DNA of 61,534 nucleotides, counting the filler. It is 5 parts of 5 records of this genome, joined end to end, with 100 filler letters (N's around TTAATTAATTAA, not from the genome) between each part and the next. Parts side by side here need not be neighbours in the genome. Positions count along the whole stretch, not along the records: positions 1 to 30,133 come from DRR723986_5524; 4 more parts are not named here. One strand, written 5' to 3'. Below the pieces are notes generated by a model, which was given only the letters and a program-made list of their open reading frames with translations, did no database searches and had not been told where the DNA came from. Both the position numbers and the translations under genes were made by a program. Position 1 is the first letter of the stretch. Each line of letters begins with the position of its first letter. Shown here one piece after another: positions 12,506 to 27,164 of the stretch.

Positions 12506-12510
12506 TTCTC

Positions 12511-12693
12511 ATGGATCTAGGCCCACACGCTGGCTTCATCTGGGCGTCCTACGGCCTTTGCCTCTTCACGGTCATCGGACTGATCGCCTGGGTGCGCATC
12601 GACAAGGCCCAACAGGAAAAAGCCCTCAAGGACCTGGCAGCCCGGGGCATTTCCCGCGCCCGGCCGGCCGGTGAAGGAAAAGCAAGCTCATGA
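12511..12693 (+). CDS. ccmD: Heme exporter protein CcmD
   Basis: Small TM protein HAGFIWASYG between ccmC and dsbE. Confidence 0.9.
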   Translation: MDLGPHAGFIWASYGLCLFTVIGLIAWVRIDKAQQEKALKDLAARGISRARPAGEGKASS

Positions 12694-13310
12694 CGTCCCC
12701 CGATACCGGTGCCGGCCGGCACGGGCAGCAGACTGCCAAACGCGGTTTCCCGGTTCTGGTGCTGCTGCCCTTGGTAGTGTTCGCAGCGCTCGCCGCCCTG
12801 TTCCTGTTTCAGCTGACCCTCGGCGGCGATCCGCAGAAAATTCCCTCTGCGCTGATCAACAAGCCGGCGCCGGAATTCGACCTGCCGCCGGTTGAAGGCC
12901 TCACCGATGGTGACACCGCCGTTGCCGGGTTTTCCCGTCAGGATCTCATCGGCAAGATTTCCGTCGTCAATGTGTTTGCATCCTGGTGCGTGCCCTGCCG
13001 CCAGGAGCACCCGCTTCTGGAAGAGCTTGCAAAGGTCGAGGGCATCCAGCTTCTCGGTATCAACTACAAGGACAAGCCGGAAAACGCGCGCCGCTTCCTG
13101 GGCAGTCTCGGTAATCCGTATCAGCGCGTCGGCGCAGATACCGCTGGCCGCACCGCGATCGAATGGGGTGTCTACGGTGTGCCGGAAACCTTCGTCGTCG
13201 ATGGGGAAGGCACGATCCGGTACAAGTTCATCGGTCCGCTGAGCCCCGAAAGCTATTACGACGTCTTCCTGCCGGAACTGCAGAAGATCATGGACGGCAA
13301 CAAATCCTGA
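12690..13310 (+). CDS. dsbE: Thiol:disulfide interchange protein DsbE/CcmG
   Basis: PSALINKPAP, FASWCVPCRQEHP, GVYGVPETF. Confidence 0.95.
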   Translation: MTSPDTGAGRHGQQTAKRGFPVLVLLPLVVFAALAALFLFQLTLGGDPQKIPSALINKPAPEFDLPPVEGLTDGDTAVAGFSRQDLIGKISVVNVFASWCVPCRQEHPLLEELAKVEGIQLLGINYKDKPENARRFLGSLGNPYQRVGADTAGRTAIEWGVYGVPETFVVDGEGTIRYKFIGPLSPESYYDVFLPELQKIMDGNKS

Positions 13311-13472
13311 TCTTGCCAACCTTGTGGTGCCTGCCTGTCACCTGCGCAGGCCATTGTCCCCGCTGATTGTTTGCGGTGACAACGGCGAACCGGCCAAGCC
13401 CATTTACAAATCGCCACGGGGCCGTTCTAAAGTCCGGATCATCTTTTTCAGCCGATTCCGGAGAGGCCCGTC

Positions 13473-14393
13473 TTGAAAGTACTTGTGATCGGCGGTTGCG
13501 GGTTCATCGGGTCTCATGTCGTGGACAAGTGCCTTCAGCAAGGCTTGTCGGTGCGGGTCATGGACACTCGGCCGGAACTGTACCGGCCGCCGCTTCCCGG
13601 TGTCGACTACGTCTTCCACAGCCTGTCCGATCATCACCGGCTCGCCGACACCCTGTCCGGTGTGGATGCGGTGGTGCATCTGGCCAGCACAACCGTTCCA
13701 TCGACCTCGAACCTTGATCCGGCCGCCGACATCTCCGGCAACCTCGTTCCCACGGTTCGCCTTCTGGAAGCCATGCGGGCAAGCGGAACGAGGAAACTCG
13801 TCTTCTTTTCCTCCGGCGGCACAGTCTATGGCATCCCGACAAAGGATCCGGTGCCGGAAGATCATCCGCTGAACCCGATCTCTTCCTACGGCATCGTCAA
13901 GCTGGCGATCGAACAGTACCTGCGCATGGAACAACAGCTCCACGAGCTCGAGTTCGTCGCCCTTCGTCCGGCGAACATCTATGGACCGCGCCAGGCACAG
14001 GTCGGCCTTCTGGGCGTGATCGGAACCTATCTGCGCAAGGTGGCGGAGGACGCCCCCATCGAAATCTGGGGGGACGGCAGCGTCGTGCGCGACTTCGTTC
14101 ACGTCGAAGACATTGCCGACCTGTGTCATCGCGCCCTGATCTCCGGCGAGTCCGGCTGCTTCAACGCCGGAAGCGGCGAAGGCACGTCCATCTCGCAGGT
14201 CGTCGACATCATCGGCCAGACCACAGGTCGCACCCTGGAACCGGTCTACAAGCCGGGCCGCAACTTCGACGTGCCACGGGTGGTGCTGGATATTGCCAGG
14301 GCACGAGCAACATTCGGCTGGCAGCCTGCCGTTCCCTTGCGGCGCGGCATCGGAGAAACGTGGGAATGGGTGAAGCAGCACAGCGCACCTTGA
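13473..14393 (+). CDS. NAD-dependent epimerase/dehydratase (UDP-glucose 4-epimerase-like)
   Basis: GGCGFIG, SSGGTVYG, YGIVK (YxxxK), RDFVHVED. Confidence 0.9.
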   Translation: MKVLVIGGCGFIGSHVVDKCLQQGLSVRVMDTRPELYRPPLPGVDYVFHSLSDHHRLADTLSGVDAVVHLASTTVPSTSNLDPAADISGNLVPTVRLLEAMRASGTRKLVFFSSGGTVYGIPTKDPVPEDHPLNPISSYGIVKLAIEQYLRMEQQLHELEFVALRPANIYGPRQAQVGLLGVIGTYLRKVAEDAPIEIWGDGSVVRDFVHVEDIADLCHRALISGESGCFNAGSGEGTSISQVVDIIGQTTGRTLEPVYKPGRNFDVPRVVLDIARARATFGWQPAVPLRRGIGETWEWVKQHSAP

Positions 14394-14551
14394 TGTGCCG
14401 TTAGCGCTGGAACCTGCAGAAAATCGGCGACTGACTGAAACGGACCCGCCGCATCAGTTCATTTACCCATAATAAAATCGACGCTGGCATAGATTTCCCG
14501 GAAGCCTGCGGTCATTAGTGTCCCTAGGTTAATTGAGGGGATGATTTGCGC

Positions 14552-15670
14552 ATGAACGTGACCGACAGCGCGGCAAAGGTTCGACTGGAACAACTGACCG
14601 GACTGCGCTTTTTCGCAGCCTTGCTGGTGTTTGGCGTTCATTTCCGCTGGGATACCAGCGGCGACTTCGTCAAGACAATCGCCGAACAGGGCTATGTCGG
14701 CGTCTCTTTCTTCTTCATCCTGTCCGGCTTCGTGCTGACACAGTCCTACAAGACGAGGATCCTTGCCGGCACGATGTCCTTTCGCGACTACTTCCTGCTG
14801 CGCATTGCACGTCTGACACCGCTGCATTTCCTCACCGGATTGCCGTTTCTTTATTTCTCGATCATGCAGGTCGAGGCGATCTACTCGGAAGAATTCAGCG
14901 TCATCAAGACGGTTCTGAACCTGACCTACCTGCAGAGCTGGATTCCGGTTTCCTCGATCTATTTCTCTCTCAACGCACCGTCCTGGTCGCTGTCGGATGA
15001 AATGTTCTTCTATGTGTGCTTCTTCGGCCTGGTTGCGTTTTCACCGCGAAAGCTTGTGGCGGTGACCCTGGGGCTCGGTGTGGTGGTGTTCGTTTCCGCC
15101 CTGCTGGTTCAGGTATTCCTCGGAGATGTGATCTTCTTCGGCAAATACCCGTTCTCGCATTGGCTGTTCTATGTCTTTCCCGGCTTCCGCATTCTGGAGT
15201 TTCTGGTCGGCATGGTTCTGCATGAGGCCTGGCGTCGCGGCGTCCGGCTGCCCGGTGTGGTGCAGCCACTCAGCTATCTTCTTCTGTTCCTGGCGATGTG
15301 GCTGGCACCGGATGTCCCGGATCCCTTCCGCTATTCTCTGTTCTACCTGCCGGTCATCACACTTTTCTTCTATGCACATCTGACGGAAGGCGCCGCACTC
15401 ACACGGGTGTTTGCAACTCGCCCGCTCGTGCTTCTCGGCAATGCCTCTTTCGCCTTCTATCTTGTGCACCAGCCGTCGCTTCACCTGATGAACATCTTCC
15501 TCAGGCCGTCCATCCCGGCGGATATCGTTTTCTTTCCGGTATCGCTGTGCATCACGGCCGCGTTTTCGATCTTCCTCTACCGCATTTATGAGATGCCGGC
15601 GGAGCGGGCGCTGAAATCATGGGTGAAGGGAAAGCGGTCCGCACAAACACCGAACGAGGCAACGTCCTGA
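14552..15670 (+). CDS. Acyltransferase family 3 (OafA-like membrane acyltransferase)
   Basis: LTGLRFFAALLV, GVSFFFILSGFVL, WSLSDEMFFY, LGNASFAFYLVH. Confidence 0.9.
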   Translation: MNVTDSAAKVRLEQLTGLRFFAALLVFGVHFRWDTSGDFVKTIAEQGYVGVSFFFILSGFVLTQSYKTRILAGTMSFRDYFLLRIARLTPLHFLTGLPFLYFSIMQVEAIYSEEFSVIKTVLNLTYLQSWIPVSSIYFSLNAPSWSLSDEMFFYVCFFGLVAFSPRKLVAVTLGLGVVVFVSALLVQVFLGDVIFFGKYPFSHWLFYVFPGFRILEFLVGMVLHEAWRRGVRLPGVVQPLSYLLLFLAMWLAPDVPDPFRYSLFYLPVITLFFYAHLTEGAALTRVFATRPLVLLGNASFAFYLVHQPSLHLMNIFLRPSIPADIVFFPVSLCITAAFSIFLYRIYEMPAERALKSWVKGKRSAQTPNEATS

Positions 15671-15812
15671 CGCATCAAATTCCGCGTCTCGCTGCGGTGA
15701 GCCGTTTAACATAATCTCAATGCTGACGGCGGATTATTGCGGCGAACCGGCCAATTTCAGGCCGGATACCGCCAGCCGCCACCGGTCAGATTGGCGCCAA
15801 CCATGAGTATTC

Positions 15813-16442
15813 TTGTTGCTTTCCGAACTCGTCCTTTCCGCCCTGACTGATGTGATCCTTGCCTGTGAGCTATTTTTTCTCGCCGGCCTGAGCCTGCGTC
15901 CGGGCATTCAGACCTTCTCACCTGCCTGGATCTGGAGCCTGACACTTGCATTGATCGGGCTTGCCTCGATGCTGGGTGCCATTGACCACGGGTTCTTCGA
16001 AACAATCGGTCACGAAGCGCACCGTCCGCTTGTGATCGCAACGCGCATCGTCATCGTTCTGGGCAGTCTCAGCATGATCGTCGCGGCCAGCTTTCAGTAT
16101 CTGTCCTCGCCGCTGCGCCTGGGATTTGTGGCTGCCGGCGTCCTGGGTGCACTCTGGCCGGTCTTCATGATCCTGACTTCCGACGATTTTCTGTCCGTGA
16201 TCCTCTATTATTCCGTCGGCCTGATATTCCTGCTGGTGCTGAGCGTTGTCCGGTTCCGCCAGAACAAGGGAACGCTGCCGATGATCGCCGGCATTCTTCT
16301 CACGCTGGGTGTATCAGCGATGATCCCGATGCAGAGCCCGGGGTTCTGGGGTCTTGGCCTCTATGGAAGCTATCACGTCCTGCTGATGCCAATCGTCGTG
16401 CTTCTGTATTTCGGCGGCCGCTGGTTCAGGACCACGAGGTAG
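15813..16442 (+). CDS. Multi-pass membrane protein, DUF6962-like
   Basis: About 7 TM segments; TDVILA, ASMLGAIDHG, C-terminal YHV. Confidence 0.6.
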   Translation: MLLSELVLSALTDVILACELFFLAGLSLRPGIQTFSPAWIWSLTLALIGLASMLGAIDHGFFETIGHEAHRPLVIATRIVIVLGSLSMIVAASFQYLSSPLRLGFVAAGVLGALWPVFMILTSDDFLSVILYYSVGLIFLLVLSVVRFRQNKGTLPMIAGILLTLGVSAMIPMQSPGFWGLGLYGSYHVLLMPIVVLLYFGGRWFRTTR

Positions 16443-16451
16443 GGTAACCCC

Positions 16452-17591
16452 ATGCGCACGGCTTCCATCCCCGTTGAAGAAAAGGTCCAGGAAACGGAAG
16501 ATCTTGAAACGATCTTTCATCGGATGACGGAGTTCATGCCGCAGCGGGTCGCCGATGCGGTACGGGCGGCCTCGCGCAGGGTGCCGGTCGCGGCGCATCA
16601 GGACGTCATCGTCGAGGGCGAGACAAGCGACGGGCTCTACATCGTTCTCGAAGGCACCTTCGGCATCTATCGCAAGGGTGACGGCACGGCCTCGGACCAC
16701 CGTGTTGCGGAAATTGGGCCGGGACAGCCTTTCGGCGAAATGGCGCTTCTCGACGGTGAACCACGCTCGGCAACCGTGCGTGCTGAAACAGCCGGTGCCG
16801 TGCTTGAAATCGAGCCGGAGCGGATCCTCGAACTGGCCGATGGCGAAGCCAGACTTGCAGAATTCAAGGGGGCTCTGGCATTCTTCGTGACACGGCGCAT
16901 GCGCGCCTCCACGCAGGAGCATGTCGCAGCCCTGCAGCGTGAACTGGACCTCCGGAACGAACAGCAGCAGTTCGGCAAGTTTTTCGTCTATTCGCTGATC
17001 ATGATGTCCATCGGCACGCTGGTGAACAACGTCCTGGCGCGGACGATCGTCAACGTGGACGTCTATACCGAAGTCTTCGCCTGGCAGTATCTCGCCATCC
17101 TGATGGTGCCAAGCCTCTTTGTCATCCGGCACATGGGCATTTCGATTTCGGCGCTCGGACTGACAACCGTCGGCCTGAAGAAATCCCTGATCGAGGGCGC
17201 GATCATTTCGGTCGGGCTTTGTATCTTTGCCTGGGGACTGGCGGCAGTGCTCAAATATTTCGACGCGCTACCCGGCAAGCCACTGCCCTTCAACCTGCTG
17301 GGAACACTGAGCTACTTTCTTCACAGCGCCCTGCAGGAAATCATCGCCAGGGGCTTTCTGCAGTCTTCCTTCCAGCGTTTCCTGGGAGACCAGGGCAAAT
17401 GGCGGTCGGTCCTTCTCGCCTCGGTGCTGTTCGGAATGTTCCACCTTCATTTCGGCATTCCGGCCGTGCTGATGACAATCGGCACCGGATTTATCTTCGG
17501 CTGGATCTACATCAGGCATCAGAACATCGCCGGTGTGATCCTGATTCACTACATGATGGGTGTCGCGGCCTTCAATACAGGCTTGATCTGA
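16452..17591 (+). CDS. Cyclic-nucleotide-binding domain fused to CPBP (CAAX/Abi) intramembrane metalloprotease-like domain
   Basis: FGEMALLDGEPRSATVRA (cNMP); QEIIARG, FGMFH, HYMMG (CPBP motifs). Confidence 0.85.
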   Translation: MRTASIPVEEKVQETEDLETIFHRMTEFMPQRVADAVRAASRRVPVAAHQDVIVEGETSDGLYIVLEGTFGIYRKGDGTASDHRVAEIGPGQPFGEMALLDGEPRSATVRAETAGAVLEIEPERILELADGEARLAEFKGALAFFVTRRMRASTQEHVAALQRELDLRNEQQQFGKFFVYSLIMMSIGTLVNNVLARTIVNVDVYTEVFAWQYLAILMVPSLFVIRHMGISISALGLTTVGLKKSLIEGAIISVGLCIFAWGLAAVLKYFDALPGKPLPFNLLGTLSYFLHSALQEIIARGFLQSSFQRFLGDQGKWRSVLLASVLFGMFHLHFGIPAVLMTIGTGFIFGWIYIRHQNIAGVILIHYMMGVAAFNTGLI

Positions 17592-17615
17592 GACGCAAGC
17601 CTAAGCTAGTGCTGC

Positions 17616-18584
17616 TTGCTCGACCCTATCGCTGCAGGTTGGAACGACATGATTGCCCGTGACTATTTCATACCGCGACCAGCCATCTACTATCGCGATT
17701 TCTGCTTTTATCTGGCGCTTTTTGTCGTTGGGTTTGCGTGGGGTCTGAACGCCTCCTGGCCGATGGTTATCCTGCCCTGGCTGCTGGCGACATTCGGCCT
17801 GCACCGCGCAGGACTTTTCTGCCACGAAATCGTTCACATCAAGGATGACAAGCTGCGCGGTTTCCGGGCGCTCTACACCTGGACGGTGGCGCTCATCGTG
17901 ATGGTTCCACCGCTGCGGTTTCAACTGCCGCATCTGGCCCATCATCGGCTCGGCATTTTCGGAACGCCCGAGGATCCGCAATACCCGCTCGTGCGCGGCA
18001 ATGCGTTTGCCATGGCCATGGTTCTGCTCGTGATCCCCTTTGTGGTGCCCTTTACCAACCTTCTGATGACGGTGACCGCCGCGCTCGGTGCGTTCCGGGT
18101 CGAAGCTGCGCTCGATCGCTGGGCGACGGAGAAGCTCGGCTTTTCGCTCAGCTCCGCCCTGACACCGGAACAGCAGGCCGAAGTGACCCGGCACGCCCGG
18201 GTTACGCTCGCGCTCTTCATTGCGGCAATCATCTTCTTCCCCGCGGCGCTGCCTTTCTATTATGCCGTCCTGGTTCTGGGCTGGGCGCTTTTGACCGCGC
18301 GTATCCCGCTGGAACATGAACTGGAACGCCTGGCCGAAACCTCCGGACGGGAAGACCAGATGATCGACAGCTTCACGATCGAGTCTCCGCTGGCCCTGAT
18401 CGTGCAGCCTGTTGGGTTCCGCTTTCATACGGCGCATCACATGTATCCCGGGGTGCCCTATCACAATCTGCCCGCACTCCACGAGGAGCTGAAGCGCACC
18501 ATTCCCGAGTACCGGGACAGCATCATTTCGCTCTGGACCGCGATCAGCGGCCCCAAACGCCGTCCTGCAAATTCTCTTCATTGA
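17616..18584 (+). CDS. Membrane fatty acid desaturase
   Basis: Three His boxes HEIVH, HLAHH, HTAHH and PGVPYHNLP; alternative ATG at 17649. Confidence 0.9.
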   Translation: MLDPIAAGWNDMIARDYFIPRPAIYYRDFCFYLALFVVGFAWGLNASWPMVILPWLLATFGLHRAGLFCHEIVHIKDDKLRGFRALYTWTVALIVMVPPLRFQLPHLAHHRLGIFGTPEDPQYPLVRGNAFAMAMVLLVIPFVVPFTNLLMTVTAALGAFRVEAALDRWATEKLGFSLSSALTPEQQAEVTRHARVTLALFIAAIIFFPAALPFYYAVLVLGWALLTARIPLEHELERLAETSGREDQMIDSFTIESPLALIVQPVGFRFHTAHHMYPGVPYHNLPALHEELKRTIPEYRDSIISLWTAISGPKRRPANSLH

Positions 18585-18600
18585 TTTAGAAAGCCCGCCG

Positions 18601-19833
18601 ATGAAAGACGTTATCCGCCAGCTCGCAGAAGCCATGTCTGCGGCCTCTCCCGATGCGCAGTTCGAAGTCCGCTACTGGGACGGAACCGGCTTCTCCATCG
18701 GGACCGAGCCAGAGTTCATTCTGCATTTCAAGAACGAGCGGGCTCTCTCCAGGGTGCTTTCGGATGCCTTCATGGGCTTTGGCGAGAGCTACATGCTGGG
18801 CGACATCGAGGTGGAAGGCGACATCAAGAAGCTCTTCTACCTGGGCTTTGCCATTGATTTCGCGGAACGGCCCATGTCGTTGATGCTGCGGATCAAACTG
18901 GCCTTTCACTTCCTGCGCGCACGCAACACCATTGCCCGCTCGCGCGAGAACATTTCCTTCAGCTACGACATCGGCAACGATTTTTACGAGATCCTGCTCG
19001 GAAAGGGCATGATCTACACCTGTGCCTATTTCACCTCGCCCGACAACACGCTGGATGAAGCACAGAACAACAAGCTCGAACTGGTTTGCCGCAAGCTGTG
19101 CCTGAAGCCGGGTGAACATGTTGCCGATCTCGGTTGCGGCTGGGGCGGGTTCCTGATGTATGCCGCCGAAAACTACGGCATCACGGGCGTAGGCTTCACC
19201 ATTTCGGCAGAACAGCGCGACTATGCGATTCAGAAGATCGCCGAGCGCGGCCTCTCCGACAAGATCGAGATCCGCCTGCAGGACGCTCGCGAAGCGGACG
19301 GCCTTTACGACAAGGTTGCCTCGATCGGCATGGTCGAACACATGGGCAATGCCCAGATCGCACCGGTCTTCGAACGGATCGCACACATTCTCAAGCCGCA
19401 GGGCCTTGCTTTCGTCCACACGATCGGCAACGAAATCCCCCGGCCGATCGACCCCTGGATCGACAAATACATCTTCCCGGGAACTCAGGCATCGCCGCTG
19501 ACGACCATGGTCGAGGCTGCCGGCAACAATGATCTCTACATGATCGACCTTGAGAACATCCGGCTGCACTATCCACCGACGGTCAAATACTGGCTCGCCA
19601 ATTTCGACGCCAATATCGACCGTATCCGCGAAATGTATGACGACACCTTCGTCAGAAGCTTCCGTCTGTATCTGGAAGTCGCAAGTTCCTCCTTCAGCTG
19701 GGGCGACAACCGGCTGTACCATCTGCTGATGACCAGGGGCCTGAAAAACGATGTCCCGATGACCCGGGAGCATCTGGTTCTGCCGAAGTCCGGCACTTCC
19801 CCGACCGGTACATCTTCAGAAGGTGGTGCATGA
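18601..19833 (+). CDS. cfa: Cyclopropane-fatty-acyl-phospholipid synthase family SAM-dependent methyltransferase
   Basis: YDIGNDFY, MIYTCAYF, DLGCGWGG, SIGMVEH, WIDKYIFPG. Confidence 0.9.
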   Translation: MKDVIRQLAEAMSAASPDAQFEVRYWDGTGFSIGTEPEFILHFKNERALSRVLSDAFMGFGESYMLGDIEVEGDIKKLFYLGFAIDFAERPMSLMLRIKLAFHFLRARNTIARSRENISFSYDIGNDFYEILLGKGMIYTCAYFTSPDNTLDEAQNNKLELVCRKLCLKPGEHVADLGCGWGGFLMYAAENYGITGVGFTISAEQRDYAIQKIAERGLSDKIEIRLQDAREADGLYDKVASIGMVEHMGNAQIAPVFERIAHILKPQGLAFVHTIGNEIPRPIDPWIDKYIFPGTQASPLTTMVEAAGNNDLYMIDLENIRLHYPPTVKYWLANFDANIDRIREMYDDTFVRSFRLYLEVASSSFSWGDNRLYHLLMTRGLKNDVPMTREHLVLPKSGTSPTGTSSEGGA

Positions 19834-21047
19834 CGGAACCCGTCCATGTGGCAGTGATCTATACGGACGCAGGCGGTGGCCACAGGGCCAGCGCCTTCGC
19901 CCTGAAAGCATGCCTCGAAGGGTCCGGCAGATACCGGGTCAGCCTGATAAATCCCTATACCTCGCTGATCCCGCATCTCGACCTCTTCAGCCGCTTCGGA
20001 TCACGCACAGGGGAGAATATCTACAACGAGGTCATCTTGCGTCAGGGACGTACCGGCCTCACCTGCTGGCTGTTTTATGCAGCCTTGCGCTTGAACTACG
20101 TCTTCTGCGAACCGCCGGCCATCAGCATTCTTTCCCGGCATTTCGAGGACATTCGCCCGGACATCGTGCTGTCGGTCATGCCGCTCGGCAACCGGGTGAT
20201 GCTGGAGGCGCTGAAACGCTACCGCGCTGGCATAACGGAAGGCCCGTTGCCGGAAGGCGCCGTCATGATCACGGACTGGGCGGAACTGGCAAAGGGTGTC
20301 TGGTTTCCCAATCGGGCCGACTACCACGCAATTTGCGGCACGCAGGACGCCCTGCGGAATGCCGAAAAGCTTCCAAAGCTTGCCGGCAAGATCCATGCGA
20401 TGGGCGGCTTGCTGATCCGGCCGGAATTCACCGACCCCACCCAACGCTCCAGCCGGGAAACGCTGAACCTCGATCCTTCCAGACCTGTCGTGACCGTGCT
20501 CTATGGTGCCCAGGGCAGCATGCGCATGATCGAACTGGCAACCGCAATGCGCGACATTCCACATAACGCCCAGGTGGTGTTTCTTTGCGGCCGGAACGAA
20601 GCGCTTGCCGATCAGCTGCGCGCCATGGACCTGCCTTTTCCGGTCCAGGTTCTCGGGTTTACCGACAGGGTCGCCCAGTATCTTTCCGCCAGCGATCTCT
20701 TCATTGGCAAGCCGGGTCCGGGCAGCACCAGCGAAGCCATGGCACTTGGCGTATCCATGCTGCTCGACAAGAGCCTGGCGCTGCCGCAGGAAGCTGCGGT
20801 CCTGCGCCACGTGACGAAGACAGGAGCCGGACTGGCCTTTTCGACGTCCTCCGATTTCAGCGAGAGTTTCAAGGCCGCCATGTCCGCCATCGAGAGCGGC
20901 GAGGCGCGGCAACCGGTTGCCGCCAACACATCGCCCGCCGACATTCTTGAGATCATGGACCGCATCGGCGCTTCCCGTGTTCCGGCAGCAGGCTCCTTGC
21001 AACCAGCCGGTGAATTGCCGCGCGCCCGGCACGTGTCCAGAGCCTGA
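19830..21047 (+). CDS. MGDG synthase-like glycosyltransferase (GT28)
   Basis: DAGGGHRASA, ITD, CGRNEAL, GFTDRV, KPGPGSTSEA, LPQE; ATGA-coupled to cfa. Confidence 0.87.
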   Translation: MTEPVHVAVIYTDAGGGHRASAFALKACLEGSGRYRVSLINPYTSLIPHLDLFSRFGSRTGENIYNEVILRQGRTGLTCWLFYAALRLNYVFCEPPAISILSRHFEDIRPDIVLSVMPLGNRVMLEALKRYRAGITEGPLPEGAVMITDWAELAKGVWFPNRADYHAICGTQDALRNAEKLPKLAGKIHAMGGLLIRPEFTDPTQRSSRETLNLDPSRPVVTVLYGAQGSMRMIELATAMRDIPHNAQVVFLCGRNEALADQLRAMDLPFPVQVLGFTDRVAQYLSASDLFIGKPGPGSTSEAMALGVSMLLDKSLALPQEAAVLRHVTKTGAGLAFSTSSDFSESFKAAMSAIESGEARQPVAANTSPADILEIMDRIGASRVPAAGSLQPAGELPRARHVSRA

Positions 21048-21050
21048 CCG

Positions 21051-21983
21051 ATGCCTGAGGACGATCAGGGCCCCGCGACGGGCGGCAGCCGCCCTCAAGA
21101 GCATGACCTGAAGATCAGGGTCGTCTACAATCCCCGCACAGGCCGCAAGCGCGAGAAGCGTTTCAAGGCGGTAATGGCGCTGCTTGAGGCACGCGGTCAC
21201 ACGTGCGAAATCCTGATCACGACGAAGGCGGGCGATGCCGCCGGTTTCGTTCGGGAAACCACATCAGACAACGCCGATATCCTCGCAATCGCGGGCGGCG
21301 ATGGCACGATCAACGATGCAATCCAGGGTGCCGGCCCGCAGACGCCGCCCTTGGGGCTCATACCGCTCGGCACGGCGAATGTGCTGGCGCACGAGCTCGG
21401 CATCGGCACGGATCCACACCGGATCGCGAACTGCCTTGCGGAAGCGCGCATCCTTAAGATCCGGCCAGGCCAGGTCAACGGGCACCGCTTCATGATGATG
21501 GCCGGCATCGGGCTGGACGCCCAGGTGGTTTCGGATCTCAGCCGCGCCACCAAGACCCGCTTCGGCAAGGCCGCCTATCTGATCGAAGTTTTCCGGACAC
21601 TGCGGCGATGGTCCTGCCCGCCGGTGGACGTCCGGCTGGACGGTGAGCCTGAAAAGGCAGCGACACTGATCGTCAGCCGTGGCAAACGGTATGGCGGGAC
21701 ATTTGTCCTCGCACCGAATTGCGACCTCGCCAACCCGTCTTTTTGCGCAACGATATTTCCTTCAGGCAGCGCTCTGTCTGTCTTCGAACGTTTTCTGCTG
21801 ATACCGGCAGGCCTGCTCCTGCGGCTTGGTCTCGTTGCCCAACGGCCGGCCAGAACAGTCGAAATCCTGGGCCCCCTGGGCGACCCGATACAGGCGGACG
21901 GCGATATCGTCGCGCATGCCCCTGCGCAGATCTCGGTTTGCGAGCAGCCGATACGCCTGTGCGTCCCGATGTCCCGGCGATAA
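21051..21983 (+). CDS. Diacylglycerol/sphingosine kinase family lipid kinase (YegS/DAGK_cat)
   Basis: YNPRTG, AGGDGTIND, PLGTANVLA, GIGLDA, QADGD. Confidence 0.92.
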   Translation: MPEDDQGPATGGSRPQEHDLKIRVVYNPRTGRKREKRFKAVMALLEARGHTCEILITTKAGDAAGFVRETTSDNADILAIAGGDGTINDAIQGAGPQTPPLGLIPLGTANVLAHELGIGTDPHRIANCLAEARILKIRPGQVNGHRFMMMAGIGLDAQVVSDLSRATKTRFGKAAYLIEVFRTLRRWSCPPVDVRLDGEPEKAATLIVSRGKRYGGTFVLAPNCDLANPSFCATIFPSGSALSVFERFLLIPAGLLLRLGLVAQRPARTVEILGPLGDPIQADGDIVAHAPAQISVCEQPIRLCVPMSRR

Positions 21984-21998
21984 CACGAGCCTTTAAGA

Positions 21999-23165
21999 TC
22001 AATCTTCGCTTTCCAACCCGGCAAGATGGGCCAGCCGGCGGCATGCGCTCATCCAGTCGAAGTCTTCGCGCGCGGCAATGGGCGGCTCCGGTACAGTCGT
22101 CAACGCATACTCCAGCGCCTCGAGAGCCCCTTCCAGCTCGGTGTAGAAATGGGCGTTGGGATAGGCCTTATAGGGAAGGTTGCCCGGACAGTTCGGCAGG
22201 ACGACATGCCGGCCGGCAACCAGCGCATCGGCGGTTGCCGTGCACAGGATTTCGCTGCGCGAAGGGTTCACCATGACCCGGTATCGTCCGATATCGGACC
22301 AGAACCGCCGGTTCGGTCCGAAGAACCGTAAATCCGCACCTTCCTCTCGTGCGAAGGTGCGAAACTCTGCTTCATCGCGCCCTCCGCCAATGACATCGAT
22401 GGGCCGTTTTGCACGGGCAGCGATGCGGGCGAGGTCGTCCAGGCCTTTCTCCCAGAGGAAAGCCCCGAGAAAATAGATCCCTTCGGTTTCCTGCGTAACG
22501 AGAGGCACCTGCGCGTAACCGGGCATGACACCGGTCACCCGTTCCACAGGCATTGTGATGCCCGGCAGGGTGAGGGCGGGCGACAGGCTGAGGGGCAGAT
22601 CGATGCGCAGGCGCAGGGCGCGGCCGTGCAGATAAGATACCAGCCGGGCGAGGCTGTTTGGAAACGGCAGCCCGGACATGCGGATGTAGGTTTCATAATC
22701 CGTCATGCTGAGGCCGATCGTCTTGTCCGCCCGGATGCCCCTGCGCCCGGTCGTTACCGGATACCAGCACAGATGCTCCGGCTCGCTCGCGATAAGGCAC
22801 CGGGCCGGCGGCGCGGCGCGGTAGACGTCTTCCATCGGCACGATCGACCCCATGCCTGCCACAAACCTTGCCCGATAAGGCCGGCATTCCGGAAATTTGT
22901 AGGGTCCGAAGGCTTCAAGTTCCGTCTGGAGCCAGTCGACCTGCTCGTCAAAATCGACGAAACGGGTCTCGCCCCACAGCCGTTGTTGTGAAACCTCATC
23001 CAGCCAGGGAAGAACATAGACAACCCGATAGCCAAGCGTTGCCAACCCGCAGGCGTGCCACAGCGAGATGAAGGATGGTCCGGTCATCCACGGCAGAGCG
23101 GCACTCGTCAGAACCGCAAAGTCATGGATCTCTTGACCTTTGGTACGTTCGCCAGACAGGGGCAC
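21999..23165 (-). CDS. Plant/algal-type digalactosyldiacylglycerol synthase (DGD1/DGD2-like GT4)
   Basis: TSAALPWMTG, VLPWL, EPEHLCWY, TDYETY, GIYFLG..LWEKG, YRVMVNPSRSEILCTATADAL, FDWMSA.RRL; GTG start with GGAGA RBS. Confidence 0.82.
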   Translation of the reverse strand: MPLSGERTKGQEIHDFAVLTSAALPWMTGPSFISLWHACGLATLGYRVVYVLPWLDEVSQQRLWGETRFVDFDEQVDWLQTELEAFGPYKFPECRPYRARFVAGMGSIVPMEDVYRAAPPARCLIASEPEHLCWYPVTTGRRGIRADKTIGLSMTDYETYIRMSGLPFPNSLARLVSYLHGRALRLRIDLPLSLSPALTLPGITMPVERVTGVMPGYAQVPLVTQETEGIYFLGAFLWEKGLDDLARIAARAKRPIDVIGGGRDEAEFRTFAREEGADLRFFGPNRRFWSDIGRYRVMVNPSRSEILCTATADALVAGRHVVLPNCPGNLPYKAYPNAHFYTELEGALEALEYALTTVPEPPIAAREDFDWMSACRRLAHLAGLESED

Positions 23166-23414
23166 TTGTCTCCAGTTTCAACAGCCAGAACCACGGGCAA
23201 CGATCAGCCAGCGCCCTGAAGCGAGGGAGGCGGCAGGCTGGCGCGAGACACCAGAACACATGATTCTCCGCCCGAGACAATCCACCATCGCAGGTCACGA
23301 AAGCCAGACAGGCCAGAACGCTAACGCCCGTTTCGACCTGTATTTTCCACAAGACGCCTGGCACGCCAAATGGTGAGGCCTTGTCACAAACGCGCGAATG
23401 AGGCCGTCTAAGAC

Positions 23415-23438
23415 GAAAGTCACCCGCTCGTGACTTTC
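23415..23438. promoter_or_regulatory. Perfect 9-bp inverted repeat in divergent promoter region
   Basis: gaaagtcac-N6-gtgactttc. Confidence 0.45.
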
Positions 23439-23492
23439 GGTTGAGTGCTCCATTGCATATTTTAGGGGCAATCGAACAAGGAATTGAGCCAA

Positions 23493-24266
23493 ATGGTGGG
23501 ATCGTTTTCCCGGAAGGCCGGCAAGGCCCTCCGCACCGCGCTTATTGTAACCGGCGGAATAGTTGCCCTGGCCGCGCCAATCAACGGCGCGCAGGCGCAA
23601 CCCGAAAAAGTCATCGAACTGTTTACCAGCCAGGGCTGCTCCTCGTGCCCGCCGGCCGATCGGCTGGCGGAAAAGCTGGTGCAGGAAGATAACAACGTCC
23701 TGACCATGGTGATGCCCGTCGACTACTGGGATTATCTCGGCTGGAAGGACACGCTGGCAAGTCCCGTCAACTCGCAGCGTCAGCGGGCCTATGCCGCGCG
23801 GCGCGGCGACCGGTCAGTCTACACCCCGCAAATGGTGATCAACGGCGAGGAACACGTCGTCGGCAGCCGCGAAGGCGATGTAAGGGCCGCGCTGGCACGT
23901 ACCGACCCCTTTACCGCGACAATCGACCTGAAGATTACCGACATGGTCGTCCAGGCAACGGTGAATGGCTCCCTGCCCAAGGGCTTCAACATGGCGACCG
24001 TCTATTTCCTGCGCATGCAGGATGAAGCCCTCGTTGATATCGGCCGTGGCGAAAACGCGGGCCGCAAGGTGCGTTACGTCAACGTGGTGCGCAATCTGCA
24101 GCCGATGGGGATGTGGTCCGGCGGCCAGGAGACATTCCGCATGCCGAAGTCCAAACTGATGCTGAAAGGCGACGCCCGCTGCGCAGTTGTCGTGCAGCTT
24201 GAAAATCCCGACGGGCCCGGCCGGATCATTGGCGCGGCAACCATGAACAAGAGCGGCGGTCTGTGA
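23493..24266 (+). CDS. DUF1223 thioredoxin-like secreted protein
   Basis: ELFTSQGCSSCPPAD, VDYWDYLGWKD, VYTPQMVING. Confidence 0.93.
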   Translation: MVGSFSRKAGKALRTALIVTGGIVALAAPINGAQAQPEKVIELFTSQGCSSCPPADRLAEKLVQEDNNVLTMVMPVDYWDYLGWKDTLASPVNSQRQRAYAARRGDRSVYTPQMVINGEEHVVGSREGDVRAALARTDPFTATIDLKITDMVVQATVNGSLPKGFNMATVYFLRMQDEALVDIGRGENAGRKVRYVNVVRNLQPMGMWSGGQETFRMPKSKLMLKGDARCAVVVQLENPDGPGRIIGAATMNKSGGL

Positions 24267-24488
24267 ACCGCCGCTGTGGTGTGGCCAAATATCAATTCCC
24301 TCTGAAAAACGAACCCGCCGGCTTCAAAGTCGGGTTGTAACCCCTGAGAAAACTGCTACCCCTTGCCCCGTTCGGCCGCCCGTTGAACCGTGAACGCCTT
24401 GTTGGCGCACGGCTTGCAAGACCCAGTGGCCGGTCAGGTTCTCTGCTTTGCCGGCGCCTGGTGAAGCAAATCGGTCCTGGGGGAACGC

Positions 24489-25382
24489 ATGAAGTTGAAG
24501 CGCAGGCTTCAGATAGCCTTATTGAGCATCGTTTTCGGTGTGATCGTTCTGGGTCTCAAGATCGGCGCCTACCTGCTGACCGGCTCCATAGCGCTTTATT
24601 CCGACGCGTTGGAAACGACGGTCAATATCGCGTCCGCCATCGCAACGCTTGCAGCCGTCTGGTTCGCCGCCAAACCCGCCGACAGCAACCACCCCTACGG
24701 CCACGACAAGGTTGAGTATTTCGCGGCGGTTCTCGTCGGCGTTATGATTGTGCTTGCCGCCCTGTCGATTTTCCGCGCGGCGTGGCTCGGCTTCATCAGT
24801 GGCGACAGTCCGGAATATTCGCCAGCCGGTATCGGCATGAACCTGCTTGCCGCCGTCATCAACGGCGCCTGGGCGCGTTACCTGATGAAATATGGCAAAC
24901 ACGCAAGATCACCTGCGCTTGTTGCGGACGGCAAGCACCTGATGACCGATGTGGTCAGCTCCGTCGGGGTTCTGGGCGGTGTTGTGCTGGTGATGCTCAC
25001 CGGCTGGAAAGTCATGGATCCCGCGCTTGCGGTTCTTGTCGGCCTCACCGTTCTCTGGTCCGGCTGGGGCCTCGTCAAGGAATCTGTCGGCGGACTGATG
25101 GACGAAGCTGCCTCGCACGACACATTGGACAAGATCCGTGTTCTGATTTCCGAACATGGCGAAGGCGCCCTGGAGGCACACGACCTGCGCACTCGCATTG
25201 CCGGCAAATCCACCTTCATCGATTTTCACCTGGTGGTGCCGGGCGAAATGTCCGTCGACAAGGCACATGAGATCTGCGACCGGATCGAGATTGCCATTGT
25301 CGAAGATGTCCCCGGAGCCCGGATCACCATTCACGTCGAACCGGAACACAAGGCCAAGCATTCCGGCATTGTGGTGCTCTAG
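24489..25382 (+). CDS. Cation diffusion facilitator family transporter
   Basis: GSIALYSDALE, HPYGHDKVEY, ADGKHLMTD, HDLRTR, IHVEP. Confidence 0.94.
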   Translation: MKLKRRLQIALLSIVFGVIVLGLKIGAYLLTGSIALYSDALETTVNIASAIATLAAVWFAAKPADSNHPYGHDKVEYFAAVLVGVMIVLAALSIFRAAWLGFISGDSPEYSPAGIGMNLLAAVINGAWARYLMKYGKHARSPALVADGKHLMTDVVSSVGVLGGVVLVMLTGWKVMDPALAVLVGLTVLWSGWGLVKESVGGLMDEAASHDTLDKIRVLISEHGEGALEAHDLRTRIAGKSTFIDFHLVVPGEMSVDKAHEICDRIEIAIVEDVPGARITIHVEPEHKAKHSGIVVL

Positions 25383-25892: not shown

Positions 25893-26339
25893 ATCGCGCC
25901 CCCCGGCACCAAATGTGCAACATGGCTTTCAGGATGAAGAAAGTCTCGTAATACCGCGAAATATTGCCTGAAGAACTGCTCCCTGTCACTCAAGGGACAG
26001 GATCGGGTTAAAAACTACTTCCAGAACGGCCACTCCTAAAATGGCAGCACTTTCGGAACGCTACGTTATCGGACGAGGTCTTTTCCGGCCCGGCCAACCA
26101 GCCTGTCTCCCGCCGGCGGCATCTGCAGGCAGACCGAATTGCGTCTTGCCCTCGCCCGTCACAATCCATAATACTCTGCACCCGGCGATCCTCGCCGCCG
26201 TCTCACCGACGGGTCTGAACCGGGCATTTGCTCACTGCGGAACTGTCTTGGCGCCTGCCCCGGCAACGTCGAGATTTCACCGCTCCGTCCCCGCAGCACG
26301 CCCCGGTTACTTCGGAACGATTTGAGGAACCAGTCTCAT

Positions 26340-27164
26340 ATGCCCAACTGGCGGCGCTGGCAGGCCCAGCTTGTTGATCATCTGATCCTGATTGGCGGTG
26401 CCCTTCTGATGACACTACCGGTCTATTCGATCTTCGCTGCGACCACCCATGAAGGCGGAAGGGTCCGGCCACGGCTCGACCTTGGCGGCAGCACGCTGGA
26501 AAACTACGGACACTTTCTGCAGACCGGCGCGGGCTTTTCCGGTGACGTCACAGCATTGTCGATGATGTGGAATTCCTTCCTGCTGGGCGCTGGATTTGCG
26601 ACCCTGAAGGTCGTTCTGTCCCTCATGACAGCCTATGCGCTGATCTATTTTCGGGTCCGCTTTGCCAGCGCCATCTTCGCCGTGCTTCTGCTGACCCTGT
26701 TGTTGCCTCTGGAATCCCGGTTCCTGCCGACCTATGCCGTGACCGTCGAACTTGGCCTCGTCAACACGCGTGCGGGCCTCATCCTGCCGCTGGTCGCCTC
26801 CGGCCTTGGGACGCTGTTCTTCCGCCAGTTCCTGATGACGGTTCCGGATGCGCTGCTGGAATCGGCCAGGATCGACGGCGCTGGTCCGCTGAAGTTCTTC
26901 AAGGACATTCTGGTTCCCCTGTCGCTGCCGACAGCAGCCGCGCTGTTCCTGGTCATGTTTGTCAACGGCTGGAACCAGTATCTGTGGCCGGTAATGGTCA
27001 CCTCGGAGGAAAGCACCTACACCTTGGTGCGCGGCATGCAGTTTTTCGGCAATTCCAGCCTGCGCGGACTGATGCTGGCGGTACTCGCGTTCGTGCCTCC
27101 GGCCCTGCTTGTCATATTGTTTCAACGACAAGTCGTTAAAGGCCTGTTCGACGGCTCACACTGA
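26340..27164 (+). CDS. Carbohydrate/glycerol-3-phosphate ABC permease (UgpE-like), orphan
   Basis: TLLLPLESRFLPTY, FFRQF, ESARIDGAG (EAA loop), WNQYLWP; ATG with GAGGA RBS. Confidence 0.88.
   Translation: MPNWRRWQAQLVDHLILIGGALLMTLPVYSIFAATTHEGGRVRPRLDLGGSTLENYGHFLQTGAGFSGDVTALSMMWNSFLLGAGFATLKVVLSLMTAYALIYFRVRFASAIFAVLLLTLLLPLESRFLPTYAVTVELGLVNTRAGLILPLVASGLGTLFFRQFLMTVPDALLESARIDGAGPLKFFKDILVPLSLPTAAALFLVMFVNGWNQYLWPVMVTSEESTYTLVRGMQFFGNSSLRGLMLAVLAFVPPALLVILFQRQVVKGLFDGSH

Follow-up and report, generated by a model that had tools for sequence, protein, structure and literature searches.

A nine-gene accessory island in a marine Roseibium-like bacterium that may encode a route to an unusual glycosyl-diacylglycerol

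A marine Roseibium-like bacterium carries an accessory island of ~10 kb and nine genes that is judged, with a probability of roughly 55%, to encode a pathway for a glycosyl-diacylglycerol whose first sugar is galactose-type and whose second cannot be predicted, with tailored acyl chains and control linked to cyclic nucleotides. The island lies in a window (the whole stretch of DNA analysed, 61,534 nucleotides in five joined parts, filler included). The initial annotation had called the architecture undescribed, and literature searches agree, having found no published description of the architecture or the pathway. Sato 2019 (PMC6946739) had already pointed out that DGD1 homologues exist in Proteobacteria.

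Seven genes at positions 15813 to 23165 had been recognized at the outset, and their open reading frames, claimed domains and spacing are borne out. Six lie on one strand with spacings, in gene order, of 9, 24, 16, -4 (an overlap) and 3 nt, and the stops of the kinase and DGD-like genes converge 15 nt apart. However, the cluster had been started too late, since genes for an epimerase and an AT3 protein lie between the redoxin gene and the DUF6962 gene, inside the inserted island, and belong to the unit. The dsbE-like redoxin and DUF1223 genes were correctly named as flanks, but they bound nine genes rather than seven. The two flanking genes adjoin, with gaps of ~125-155 bp, in all five same-genus genomes that do not have the cluster, and the island was therefore inserted at 13311-~23375. 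A motif block at ~23380-23445 is also present in the empty sites of these congeners and is thus ancestral and outside the island. The features are as follows.

12690-13310: redoxin (dsbE-like), left flank of the nine-gene block
13311-23375: inserted accessory island of nine genes, from empty-site comparison; right edge approximate
13473-14393, plus strand: GalE-type SDR nucleotide-sugar 4-epimerase, 306 aa (Pfam Epimerase, 5.3e-50)
14546-15670, plus strand: Acyl_transf_3 (AT3) integral-membrane O-acyltransferase, 374 aa (Pfam PF01757, 1.8e-21)
15813-16442, plus strand: DUF6962 seven-helix membrane protein, 209 aa (Pfam, 2.7e-37)
16452-17591, plus strand: cyclic-nucleotide-binding domain fused to a CPBP/Rce1-like intramembrane domain (cNMP-CPBP), 379 aa (Pfam cNMP_binding, 1.1e-18; Rce1-like, 3.2e-15)
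17616-18584, plus strand: membrane fatty-acid desaturase family protein, 322 aa (Pfam FA_desaturase, 3.3e-29)
18601-19833, plus strand: island-specific methyltransferase of the cyclopropane-fatty-acyl-phospholipid synthase family (CFAS), 410 aa (Pfam CMAS and DUF7884, 1.5e-75)
19830-21047, plus strand: MGD-type GT28 lipid glycosyltransferase, 405 aa (Pfam Glyco_tran_28_C, 5.6e-07)
21051-21983, plus strand: DgkB/YegS-family soluble lipid (diacylglycerol-type) kinase, 310 aa (Pfam DAGK_cat, 9.3e-26, and YegS_C)
21999-23165, minus strand: DGD-family GT4 of a distinct proteobacterial subfamily, 388 aa, convergent with the operon (weak Pfam GT4 matches; AtDGD2)

Co-conservation was examined in 31 loci around the DGD-like gene, namely the window and 30 genomes (13 Rhodospirillales, 7 Hyphomicrobiales, 6 Rhodobacterales and 4 unplaced). 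Several of these loci lie on short contigs, and an absence there is uncertain. The genes occur together in 20-25 of the 31 loci across the three orders, in differing orders and orientations, and the lack of co-conservation that the initial annotation named as grounds for rejection is not seen. The MGD-like gene adjoins the DGD-like gene in 25 loci, and in all four tested cases where it does not, an orthologue lies elsewhere in the genome (all five genomes searched were positive, one of them with the genes adjacent). The cNMP-CPBP gene is found in 25 loci, usually immediately adjoining DUF6962, while DUF6962 and the desaturase are each near the DGD-like gene in 23. Among 61 relatives, the DGD-like, MGD-like and DUF6962 genes are each present in the same three. 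These co-occurrence counts indicate clustering beyond chance. That the genes are chance neighbours or merely share an operon, with no common pathway, is strongly disfavoured, given the recurrence of the same families in varied arrangements, the identical presence and absence in the relatives and the insertion of the block as one unit.

The distribution of the island is patchy, and of 401 Alphaproteobacteria sampled two carry it, the nearest genome itself being one. Across 20 loci, the DGD-like, MGD-like and CPBP proteins show correlated pairwise identities (Spearman 0.69-0.76, Mantel p 0.001), a correlation partly expected from shared ancestry. The proteins of Pseudodonghicola (Rhodobacterales) are as close to those of the window as are those of the congener R. 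suaedae. This closeness and the correlated identities point to transfer of the island as a whole block.

The GT28 protein is of the MGD type, as had been proposed. Its best solved-structure match is Arabidopsis MGD1 (2.3e-26, residues 4-340), ahead of a processive diacylglycerol beta-glucosyltransferase (PDB 9wde, 1.7e-13). The GGGH motif, in which H18 is equivalent to the catalytic His155 of MGD1, is kept in all 22 orthologues that cover the site, and the GKPGPG..SE motif in 24 of 24. Sugar specificity cannot be read from the sequence of MGD homologues, and those of Roseiflexus are reported to use Gal or Glc (PMC3276260).

The DGD-like protein has the fold of its family. Arabidopsis DGD2 is its sole PDB sequence match (7.5e-35), and the AF2 model (pLDDT 87.9) finds the same enzyme in Foldseek (8p6s; E 1.9e-28, TM 0.82/0.84), followed by BshA (1.6e-13, TM 0.59). 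The assignment as a DGD stands at this level but not at that of the canonical subfamily. A 96* branch separates the window subfamily from plant DGDs and from other bacterial homologues, the window clade forms one side of a 99* branch, and other bacterial proteins are closer to plant DGDs than the subfamily is. Asn26 and His151, which in AtDGD2 bind the O6' of galactose (PMC12022483), are replaced throughout the clade, as is Lys238. Position 26 is I, L, F or V (hydrophobic in 43/43 sequences), His151 becomes Met in 38 of 43, and Lys238 becomes R, A, S or G (Ala in the window protein). His151 is present in all 106 eukaryote-type sequences. The histidine appears to be relocated: canonical sequences read N-P-H-(N/S/T)-K and those of the window clade hydrophobic-S-M-H-x, with a new His180 in 39 of 43 sequences, and the basal member P0046 retains H151 together with N180. 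Because the Asn and His that hold O6' in the plant enzyme are hydrophobic here and His180 is new, the second sugar or its linkage probably differs from the plant alpha-Gal(1-6). The initial proposal of DGDG as the product is thus not supportable.

The histidine equivalent to His151 is reported to be essential in teSPS and BshA (PMC12022483), and a GT4 protein that has lost it may therefore be inactive or do something else. The DGD-like protein might then be a scaffold, lipid binder or regulator, and the island would produce a monoglycosyl lipid only, a reading that the change of Lys238 to Ala also favours. It is nevertheless improbable, as the nucleotide-binding residues T28, G29, K240, N300 and the E305...D/E313 pair (of EX7E type, E305/D313 in the window) are invariant in all 43 subfamily sequences, the new His180 is conserved in 39 of them, and conservation this strong over three orders speaks for a nucleotide-sugar site that has been kept.

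The two glycosyltransferases had suggested a chloroplast-style route from MGDG to DGDG. In the strict form of this idea, the island reproduces the plastid route faithfully in a bacterium and is turned on to save phosphorus, so that UDP-Gal and diacylglycerol give beta-MGDG through GT28 and alpha-Gal(1-6)-beta-Gal-diacylglycerol through GT4. AtMGD1 and AtDGD2 are the best structure and sequence matches of the two enzymes, a 4-epimerase is co-conserved, and diglycosyl-diacylglycerol of unknown genetic origin is reported from phosphorus-depleted marine bacterial fractions, where its synthesis is said to await "further characterization" (PMC4796936). The plastid pathway (MGD1, then DGD1/DGD2; PDB 4wyi, 8p6s) likewise needs a UDP-sugar 4-epimerase for supply. 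However, the island enzymes are only ~27-30% identical to their plastid counterparts, the GT4 belongs to another subfamily with an altered galactose site and has no N-terminal DGD1 extension, and clustering with desaturase, CFAS, kinase, cNMP-CPBP and DUF6962 genes has no plastid equivalent. The proposed control by phosphate starvation is not supported either. A scan of all 31 loci for Pho boxes scoring at least 12 of 14 gave none in any promoter region, and its three matches lie inside coding regions or far away. With the island also being so rare, a faithful copy is unlikely; what stands of the chloroplast comparison is the catalytic His of GT28 and the fold of GT4, and what falls is the GT4 subfamily, the DGDG product and Pho control.

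Canonical-site bacterial DGD homologues (e.g., those of Thiorhodovibrio and Imhoffiella, which are uncharacterised) share the GT4 DGD family with the window protein and are about as long (~370-400 aa). N26, H151 and K238, all replaced in the window protein, are retained in these homologues, whose identity to plant DGD1/2 is 36-40%. The 96* branch groups them with the plant enzymes, and the Chromatiaceae group adjoins the eukaryote clade with weak support (80). The Firmicute diglucosyl-diacylglycerol synthase UgtP/YpfP is a related GT28-type enzyme (NCBIfam PRK13609, 2.5e-18; PDB 9wde), alongside which a DgkB-type kinase recycles diacylglycerol. The window GT28 is nearer to MGD1 (95.7 versus 53.4 bits), and UgtP serves lipoteichoic acid synthesis whereas the island belongs to a Gram-negative membrane. 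In Roseiflexus (Chloroflexi), the GT28 enzymes RcMGD, RcMGlcD and RcDGlcD glycosylate diacylglycerol, and MGDG receives a second sugar in vivo (Yuzawa et al. 2012, PMC3276260). In that system another GT28, rather than a DGD-family GT4, performs the second step, and the available text of that report describes no comparable set of tailoring and regulatory genes. Alphaproteobacteria and marine heterotrophs also make mono-, diglycosyl or glucuronosyl diacylglycerol with Pgt (processive) and Agt (PMC4796936, in part). These are single genes of other glycosyltransferase families under Pho control, whereas the island enzymes are MGD- and DGD-type and no Pho box was found in its promoter regions.

The kinase exceeds the TIGR00147 cut-off (130.5 versus 118.65 bits), and its best PDB match is S. 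aureus DgkB (7.1e-23). The DAGK_cat family also covers ceramide and other lipid kinases, which leaves room for both glycosyltransferases to act on some further acceptor in place of diacylglycerol, whether a lipid (ceramide-like, polyprenyl, hopanoid or carotenoid) or no lipid at all, with the kinase and the seven-helix protein in that same pathway. Acceptor specificity is not readable from sequence, and the AF2 model of DUF6962 (pLDDT 95, 7 helices) weakly resembles lipid hydrolase and receptor folds (adiponectin receptor 1, TM 0.63-0.66, E 0.07-0.1; ACER3, TM 0.55). Still, serine palmitoyltransferase, polyprenyl and carotenoid genes are absent among the co-conserved families, enzymes of the CFAS and desaturase families modify the acyl chains of membrane lipids, and the GT28 retains the His-Arg pair through which MGD1 interacts with diacylglycerol and PG (PMC7419546). 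Another acceptor is accordingly doubtful at best.

In the preferred glycosyl-diacylglycerol pathway, the desaturase and CFAS would tailor the acyl chains. All eight His of the desaturase boxes (HxxxH, HxxHH, HxxHH) are kept in 23 of 23 orthologues, and the protein has no PDB sequence match at E<=1. The CFAS matches PDB 7qos (3.8e-81) and scores 285 bits against the NCBIfam CFA synthase, under the cut-off of 400. It is the fourth paralogue in genome G001, while the cluster-less genomes G005 and G007 have three each (31-37% identity). The kinase is present in 17 of the 31 loci, CFAS in 16 and AT3 in 8 (chiefly Stappiaceae and Pseudodonghicola), and a small methyltransferase takes their place in 12 loci, so tailoring varies between lineages.

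The epimerase lies near the DGD-like gene in 24/31 loci by tblastn and 27/31 by ORF clustering, although orthologues from distant loci are only ~30% identical. Its best PDB matches are UDP-glucose 4-epimerases (4zrm, 9.6e-58), and it scores 174.6 bits against NCBIfam GalE, below the cut-off of 262.3. SSGGTVYG and YxxxK are present and the dehydratase-type acidic pair is absent. The co-conserved enzyme is consistent with a supply of UDP-galactose.

DUF6962 has invariant D13, S36, D58, H59, H67, R78, D124 and H188 in 17 sequences. The cNMP-CPBP protein keeps FGE...PRSA, QExxxR, FxxxH and H366 in 15 orthologues and differs from canonical CPBP in its QExxxR and in having no Asn after H366. Their roles in the pathway are guesses: this conserved membrane pair probably couples the pathway to a cAMP or cGMP signal, or processes one of its components.

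The analysis shows which genes are present, their families and folds, that catalytic motifs are kept, that the genes co-occur, where the island lies and how patchily it is distributed; the substrates, the product, the step order and the regulation are all inferred. The pathway would begin with the GalE-type enzyme forming a 4-epimer UDP-sugar, most simply UDP-galactose. The MGD-type GT28 would glycosylate diacylglycerol with the first hexose, and the DGD-family GT4, with its rewired donor pocket, would add the second sugar to the monoglycosyl lipid. The desaturase would place a double bond in acyl chains already bound to lipid, the island CFAS would turn a double bond into a cyclopropane or a methyl branch, and the AT3 protein may O-acylate the head group in the window lineage. 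The DgkB-type kinase would set the balance between diacylglycerol and phosphatidate; plant MGD1 is activated by phosphatidate (PA) or PG, and its activity is reported to require one of them (PMC7419546). The horizontally acquired island would thus contain the whole route to a glycosyl-diacylglycerol that is free of phosphorus and has tailored acyl chains, and the lipid made is most likely an unusual, so far undescribed membrane glycolipid.

Seven open reading frames at positions 15813-23165 were described in the initial annotation as a closely spaced unit, and all seven are present with that spacing: the gaps between them are 9, 24, 16, -4, and 3 nt, and 15 nt separate the convergent stops of the kinase and DGD-like genes. 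The domain calls for these genes were borne out by Pfam and NCBIfam. The extent of the unit requires revision, however, as an epimerase gene and an AT3 gene upstream also belong to it, bringing the number of genes to nine.

Genes of the island, in window positions
13473-14393, plus strand: GalE-type SDR (epimerase); Pfam Epimerase 5.3e-50, with UDP-glucose 4-epimerase matches in the PDB
14546-15670: AT3 membrane acyltransferase, between the epimerase and DUF6962 genes
15813-23165, seven genes with their Pfam/NCBIfam domains: DUF6962; cNMP-binding plus CPBP/Rce1-like (cNMP-CPBP); fatty acid desaturase; two-domain CFAS-family methyltransferase; GT28 C-terminal domain (MGD-like); DAGK_cat/YegS kinase; and a weak GT4 match (the convergent DGD-like gene)

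The boundaries of the island follow from empty sites in congeners. Five cluster-less genomes of the same genus, complete or nearly so, all have the redoxin (DsbE-like) and DUF1223 genes as immediate neighbours on one strand, approximately 125-155 bp apart, against 10.2 kb in the window. The island thus spans about 13311-23375 and contains nine genes. No integrase, tRNA, or flanking repeat was found within it, and its GC content is unremarkable. Upstream of the DUF1223 gene (23484-24266) is a strongly conserved block (window approximately 23380-23445) that contains TTGTCACAAACGCGCGAA and AAAGTCAC-N6-GTGACTTT, a perfect inverted repeat of 8 bp. Relatives in Roseibium and Stappia keep the block, and so do cluster-less genomes, where it stands between the redoxin and DUF1223 genes. 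It had looked like an operator of the cluster, but its presence at empty sites places it in the old intergenic region outside the island, and it probably serves the DUF1223 gene as an operator or promoter element. Farther downstream, a cation-diffusion-facilitator efflux protein (Cation_efflux and ZT_dimer) and an ABC-type permease component are encoded at 24489-25382 and 26322-27164; these are ordinary neighbours that show no co-conservation with the island.

One genome from each of 185,579 species was scanned with two peptide patterns, giving at least 30 distinct loci that encode a GT4 relative; the dependence on those patterns makes this a lower bound. Thirteen loci are from Rhodospirillales, seven from Hyphomicrobiales, and six from Rhodobacterales, with four unplaced. 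The nearest GT4 relatives are found in Roseibium and Stappia (88-90% identity), and an MGD-like protein 98% identical to that of the window is labelled Roseibium sp. ROS1 in one source. Neighbouring genes were counted at the 30 loci and the window by tblastn with the window proteins (E<=1e-10, coverage >=50%) within 10 kb either way, or as far as the contig reached. Seven of the loci are on contigs of <15 kb, so some of the absences in these counts are truncations.

Occurrence of island and flanking genes at the 31 loci
DGD-like: 31/31
MGD-like: 25/31
cNMP-CPBP: 25/31
Epimerase: 24/31 by tblastn, 27/31 by ORF clustering of all loci
DUF6962: 23/31
Desaturase: 23/31
Kinase: 17/31
CFAS: 16/31
Small methyltransferase (not in the window): 12/31
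AT3: 8/31
Redoxin: 4/31
DUF1223: 4/31

Gene order and orientation vary by lineage, which favours selection for the set itself over inherited synteny. The epimerase gene is divergent from the DGD-like gene in many Rhodospirillales, and the MGD-like gene is directly 3' of the DGD-like gene in Terasakiella and Thalassospira. In four genomes the MGD-like gene is not nearby, and all four possess an orthologue elsewhere (E<=1e-97). The DGD-like, MGD-like, and DUF6962 genes each occur in the same 3 of 61 relatives (37 of the same genus and 24 from other families of the order) and are absent from the others. In an even draw of 401 Alphaproteobacteria, the GT4 is present in two, one of which is the nearest genome itself. 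Pseudodonghicola, a member of the Rhodobacterales, carries the same nine-gene order in a different genomic context, and its island proteins are as similar to those of the window as are those of the congener R. suaedae. The pairwise identities of the three core proteins are correlated (Spearman 0.69-0.76, Mantel p 0.001, 20 loci), some of which shared ancestry alone would give. The patchy distribution, the likeness of the Pseudodonghicola island, and the correlated identities suggest that the island is an accessory unit gained, lost, and transferred as a block. The nine-gene island is real, conserved, and mobile.

The small class-I methyltransferase (approximately 200 amino acids) is encoded at loci L013-L015, L019, L021, L023-L028, and L030 (for example, L014:8226-8855, minus strand) and has a weak NCBIfam match to a mycofactocin oligosaccharide methyltransferase (1.2e-08). 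This suggests head-group methylation in the carrier lineages, with the Stappiaceae version of the cluster having AT3 instead. Another ORF, 'unk332' (L013:11076-12074), proved to be an opposite-strand shadow of the epimerase gene, and a TAA flagged inside the gene of the relative G004 is its natural stop; the gene at L001 is intact.

The genes had been proposed as a plastid-style pathway from MGDG to DGDG, and the first enzyme is of the MGD type. The GT28 is homologous over its full length to Arabidopsis MGD1 (AtMGD1; 2.3e-26, residues 4-340), which ranks above a processive DAG beta-glucosyltransferase (1.7e-13) and MurG (0.0068) among PDB matches, placing it nearer to MGD1 than to MurG or UgtP. 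PF06925 (MGDG_synth) is present in its relatives, and the names that sources give them include '1,2-diacylglycerol 3-beta-galactosyltransferase'. The catalytic base of MGD1 is His155 of a GGGH motif (excerpts of PMC7419546). Of 24 orthologues, 2 have a gap at the equivalent residue, H18, and the other 22 all keep it; G293, K294, G296, P297, S301, and E302 of the C-terminal UDP-binding motif GKPGPG..SE are kept in 24 of 24. MGDG synthases transfer beta-galactose from UDP-Gal to sn-1,2-diacylglycerol. The sugar specificity of the GT28 is unreadable from sequence because Roseiflexus MGD homologues use either galactose or glucose (PMC3276260, in the sections available). A galactose-type first sugar would be the simplest guess for the product of this candidate enzyme because a 4-epimerase is co-conserved, which is circumstantial. 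The best PDB matches of the epimerase are all UDP-glucose 4-epimerases (4zrm, 9.6e-58), and it scores 174.6 bits against the NCBIfam GalE model (TIGR01179), under the cut-off of 262.3. The protein contains SSGGTVYG and Y139xxxK143, which we read as the SDR catalytic Ser/Tyr/Lys, and lacks the acidic pair that we take to mark dehydratases.

The GT4 belongs to the DGD family by both homology and fold. Its sole PDB sequence match is Arabidopsis DGD2 (AtDGD2; 7.5e-35), which extends over essentially the full length of the protein (residues 10-383). An AlphaFold2 model (pLDDT 87.9) shows the DGD-specific GT-B fold, matching the DGD2 structure 8p6s in Foldseek (TM 0.82/0.84, E 1.9e-28) ahead of the next structure, BshA (TM 0.59, E 1.6e-13). 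Asn26 and His151 hold the galactose O6' in the structure of DGD2 with UDP-Gal, in which Lys238 contacts both O2' and the beta-phosphate; the equivalents of His151 are essential in teSPS and BshA (both from portions of PMC12022483). These positions were compared in an alignment of 173 family members, among them a eukaryote-type set (n=106) and the proteobacterial DGD-like subfamily that includes the window GT4 (window clade, n=43).

Residues at the galactose-contacting positions of AtDGD2
Asn26: eukaryote-type, Asn 102/106; window clade, I/L/F/V 43/43
His151: eukaryote-type, His 106/106; window clade, Met 38/43, His 1
Lys238: eukaryote-type, Lys 105/106; window clade, R 23, A 8, S 7, G 2, K 2, T 1 (window protein, Ala)

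The window clade therefore does not keep the three galactose contacts. The nucleotide-binding residues of the clade (T28, G29, K240, N300, E305, and D/E313) are invariant (43/43), and the window GT4 keeps those of AtDGD2 (Thr21, Gly22, and the Asp313/Glu321 pair). A new histidine, His180, is present in 39 of the 43 and aligns with AtDGD2 Asn175, which is one helical turn from Leu171, a residue lining the acceptor pocket. P0046, which branches off first within the window clade, still combines His151 with Asn180. From this one intermediate sequence we infer that the active site may have been rewired and is probably not dead. The replacement of both O6' ligands by hydrophobic side chains suggests a donor without a free 6-hydroxyl or another mode of binding.

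In the family tree the GT4 does not group with plant or algal DGDs. Of 1.84 billion representatives searched with HMMER, 632 matched at E<=1e-3 and 41 at E<=1e-30, and two unrooted trees were built, one with FastTree (173 rows) and one with IQ-TREE in its quick mode (70 rows), a less reliable method. Both place the eukaryote-type sequences, among them the named plant DGD1 and DGD2, in a single clade (branch support 100; 27 rows in IQ-TREE) and the window clade (13 rows in IQ-TREE) on one side of a branch with support 99. Both also have a branch (support 96) that separates the window clade and 5 loose bacterial sequences from the eukaryotes and 25 other bacterial sequences. These other bacterial homologues, which include those of the purple sulfur bacteria Thiorhodovibrio and Imhoffiella, keep Asn26, His151, and Lys238. 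These canonical-type homologues are 36-40% identical to the plant enzymes and adjoin the eukaryote clade with a weak support of 80. Judged from the alignment and trees, the window GT4 is clearly not the nearest bacterial relative of the plastid DGD. Thiorhodovibrio appears to have two DGD-family genes, a canonical His type near the plant DGDs and a Met type like that of the window, and the Imhoffiella homologue is of the canonical type (proteins P0323, P0336, and P0039). On two defining points, the galactose contacts and the tree grouping, the GT4 departs from a canonical DGDG synthase. The earlier proposal is partly supported, in that the island would work like the plastid two-step route with a second enzyme that is not canonical.

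The acyl-chain genes are consistent with tailoring of the lipid. All three His boxes of the desaturase (H70, H74, H106, H109, H110, H271, H274, and H275) are intact in each of 23 orthologues; the protein has no sequence match in the PDB, and NCBIfam gave no closer assignment. The CFAS has DUF7884 and CMAS domains and a PDB match to CFAS (3.8e-81), but against NCBIfam it scores 285, 280, and 258 bits where the cut-offs are 400, 600, and 650. The nearest genome has four CFAS-family genes, that of the island and three others at 33-36% identity, and two cluster-less congeners have three each; the island CFAS is an extra paralogue. This agrees with Labrenzia strains having two to five CFAS types, some of them strain-limited (PMC6213206, in part); the portion of that text searched makes no mention of the island cluster. 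The desaturase and CFAS would form a logical pair in which a double bond is made and then cyclopropanated or methylated. The kinase scores 130.5 bits against the YegS/Rv2252/BmrU family model TIGR00147, above the cut-off of 118.65, and its nearest PDB match is S. aureus DgkB (7.1e-23). As MGD1 requires phosphatidate or phosphatidylglycerol (excerpts of PMC7419546), a putative DAG kinase beside an MGD-type enzyme could, speculatively, both drain its substrate and make its activator.

The model of the DUF6962 protein is a confident (pLDDT 95) bundle of seven helices, and Asp, His, Ser, and Arg are among its invariant residues. Its fold matches are weak (E 0.05-0.1), with the highest TM-scores to adiponectin receptor 1 (TM 0.63-0.66), followed by myomaker and alkaline ceramidase 3 (0.53-0.56), all of which we take to be 7TM lipid hydrolase-type proteins and whose HxxxH motif it lacks. 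The best Foldseek hit (E 5e-3) is a designed protein, and a protein atlas returned DUF6962 clusters only. The cNMP-CPBP gene adjoins DUF6962, directly 3' of it, in most loci. The motifs of CPBP/Rce1-like glutamic intramembrane proteases are EExxxR, FxxxH, and HxxxN. In 15 cNMP-CPBP sequences the first is QExxxR, with Q295, E296, and R300 invariant; F327 and H331 of the second are invariant; and invariant H366 of the third is followed by G370 in place of Asn. The Pfam Rce1-like match is above cut-off (3.2e-15). The phosphate-binding cassette of cyclic-nucleotide domains has the form G-E...R-(S/T)-A and is seen here as FGEMALLDG.PRSA, with G95 and E96 invariant and R105 nearly so (Pfam 1.1e-18). 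Our best guess is that DUF6962 and cNMP-CPBP make up a step of processing or sensing under cyclic-nucleotide control. Outside any such island, a cluster-less congener has a gene for a full-length cNMP-CPBP paralogue (G005:C1:5094776-5095804, 35% identity), indicating that the fusion is used beyond the island pathway.

Remodelling upon phosphate starvation had been suggested as a role for the cluster. A Pho box consists of two CTGTCAT-like repeats 11 bp apart. A crude scan at >=12/14 found none in the window and three in the 31 loci, two within coding regions and one >9 kb from the cluster. With none in promoter regions of the 31 loci, the scan lends no support to phosphate-starvation control and is weak negative evidence against it. 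A search of 12000-25000 with Rfam (E<=0.1) gave 0 matches and thus no riboswitch, and consensus scans for promoters and terminators gave 6 and 13 hits, respectively, no excess over the 3.3+-2.0 and 9.7+-3.4 of shuffled sequence. An exact 15-nt repeat upstream of the epimerase and DUF6962 genes is attributed to chance, being kept in neither L001 nor L003. In a 95-99% identical strain, the island is covered by RNA-library contigs (four runs, four studies), which do not prove transcription and are not counted as evidence of it; in run X1 a single 7.6-kb contig (15699-23335) extends exactly from DUF6962 to the DGD-like gene, and two of the four runs contain contigs of 48-85 kb, suggesting DNA carry-over.

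The most likely function of the island is the synthesis of a tailored glycosyl-diacylglycerol. A more far-reaching reading, which we consider unlikely (a probability of roughly 0.15), is that it may be an unrecognised mobile, cyclic-nucleotide-gated membrane-remodelling module. The histidine of its DGD-family enzyme would have moved from 151 to 180 and the O6' pocket would be shut by Ile/Leu and Met, so that the enzyme would add either a pentose or a 6-deoxyhexose, sugars that have no free 6-hydroxyl, or else form a new linkage, giving a glycolipid class new to bacteria. If this were true, the MGD and DGD types in one proteobacterial cluster would show the two-step 'plastid' logic to be a transferable bacterial unit, and a bacterial origin of the eukaryotic MGD-DGD pair would be directly testable.

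No published description of the nine-gene cluster was found in the literature searched, outside which most subscription journals fall. Sebastian et al. left the synthesis of diglycosyl-diacylglycerol (DGDG) in marine heterotrophs open (PMC4796936, in the parts available), and the island is a candidate, though rare, route to it. The steady company of cNMP-CPBP and DUF6962 gives both orphan families a testable membrane-lipid context, and the carriers include culturable type strains, which are good experimental handles. Among the culturable carriers are Roseibium aggregatum IAM 12614 (L001), Pseudodonghicola xiamenensis DSM 18339 (L005), Terasakiella pusilla DSM 6293 (L024), and Tistlia consotensis (L029). 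Sato (2019) noted proteobacterial DGD homologues with the direction of transfer undecided (PMC6946739, in part). For the origin of plant DGD1 and DGD2, the island provides a DGD-family enzyme beside an MGD-type enzyme in bacteria, in a unit that moves between orders, and the family tree, in which other bacterial homologues (Chromatiaceae type) are nearer to the plants, provides concrete genomes for tests of that origin.
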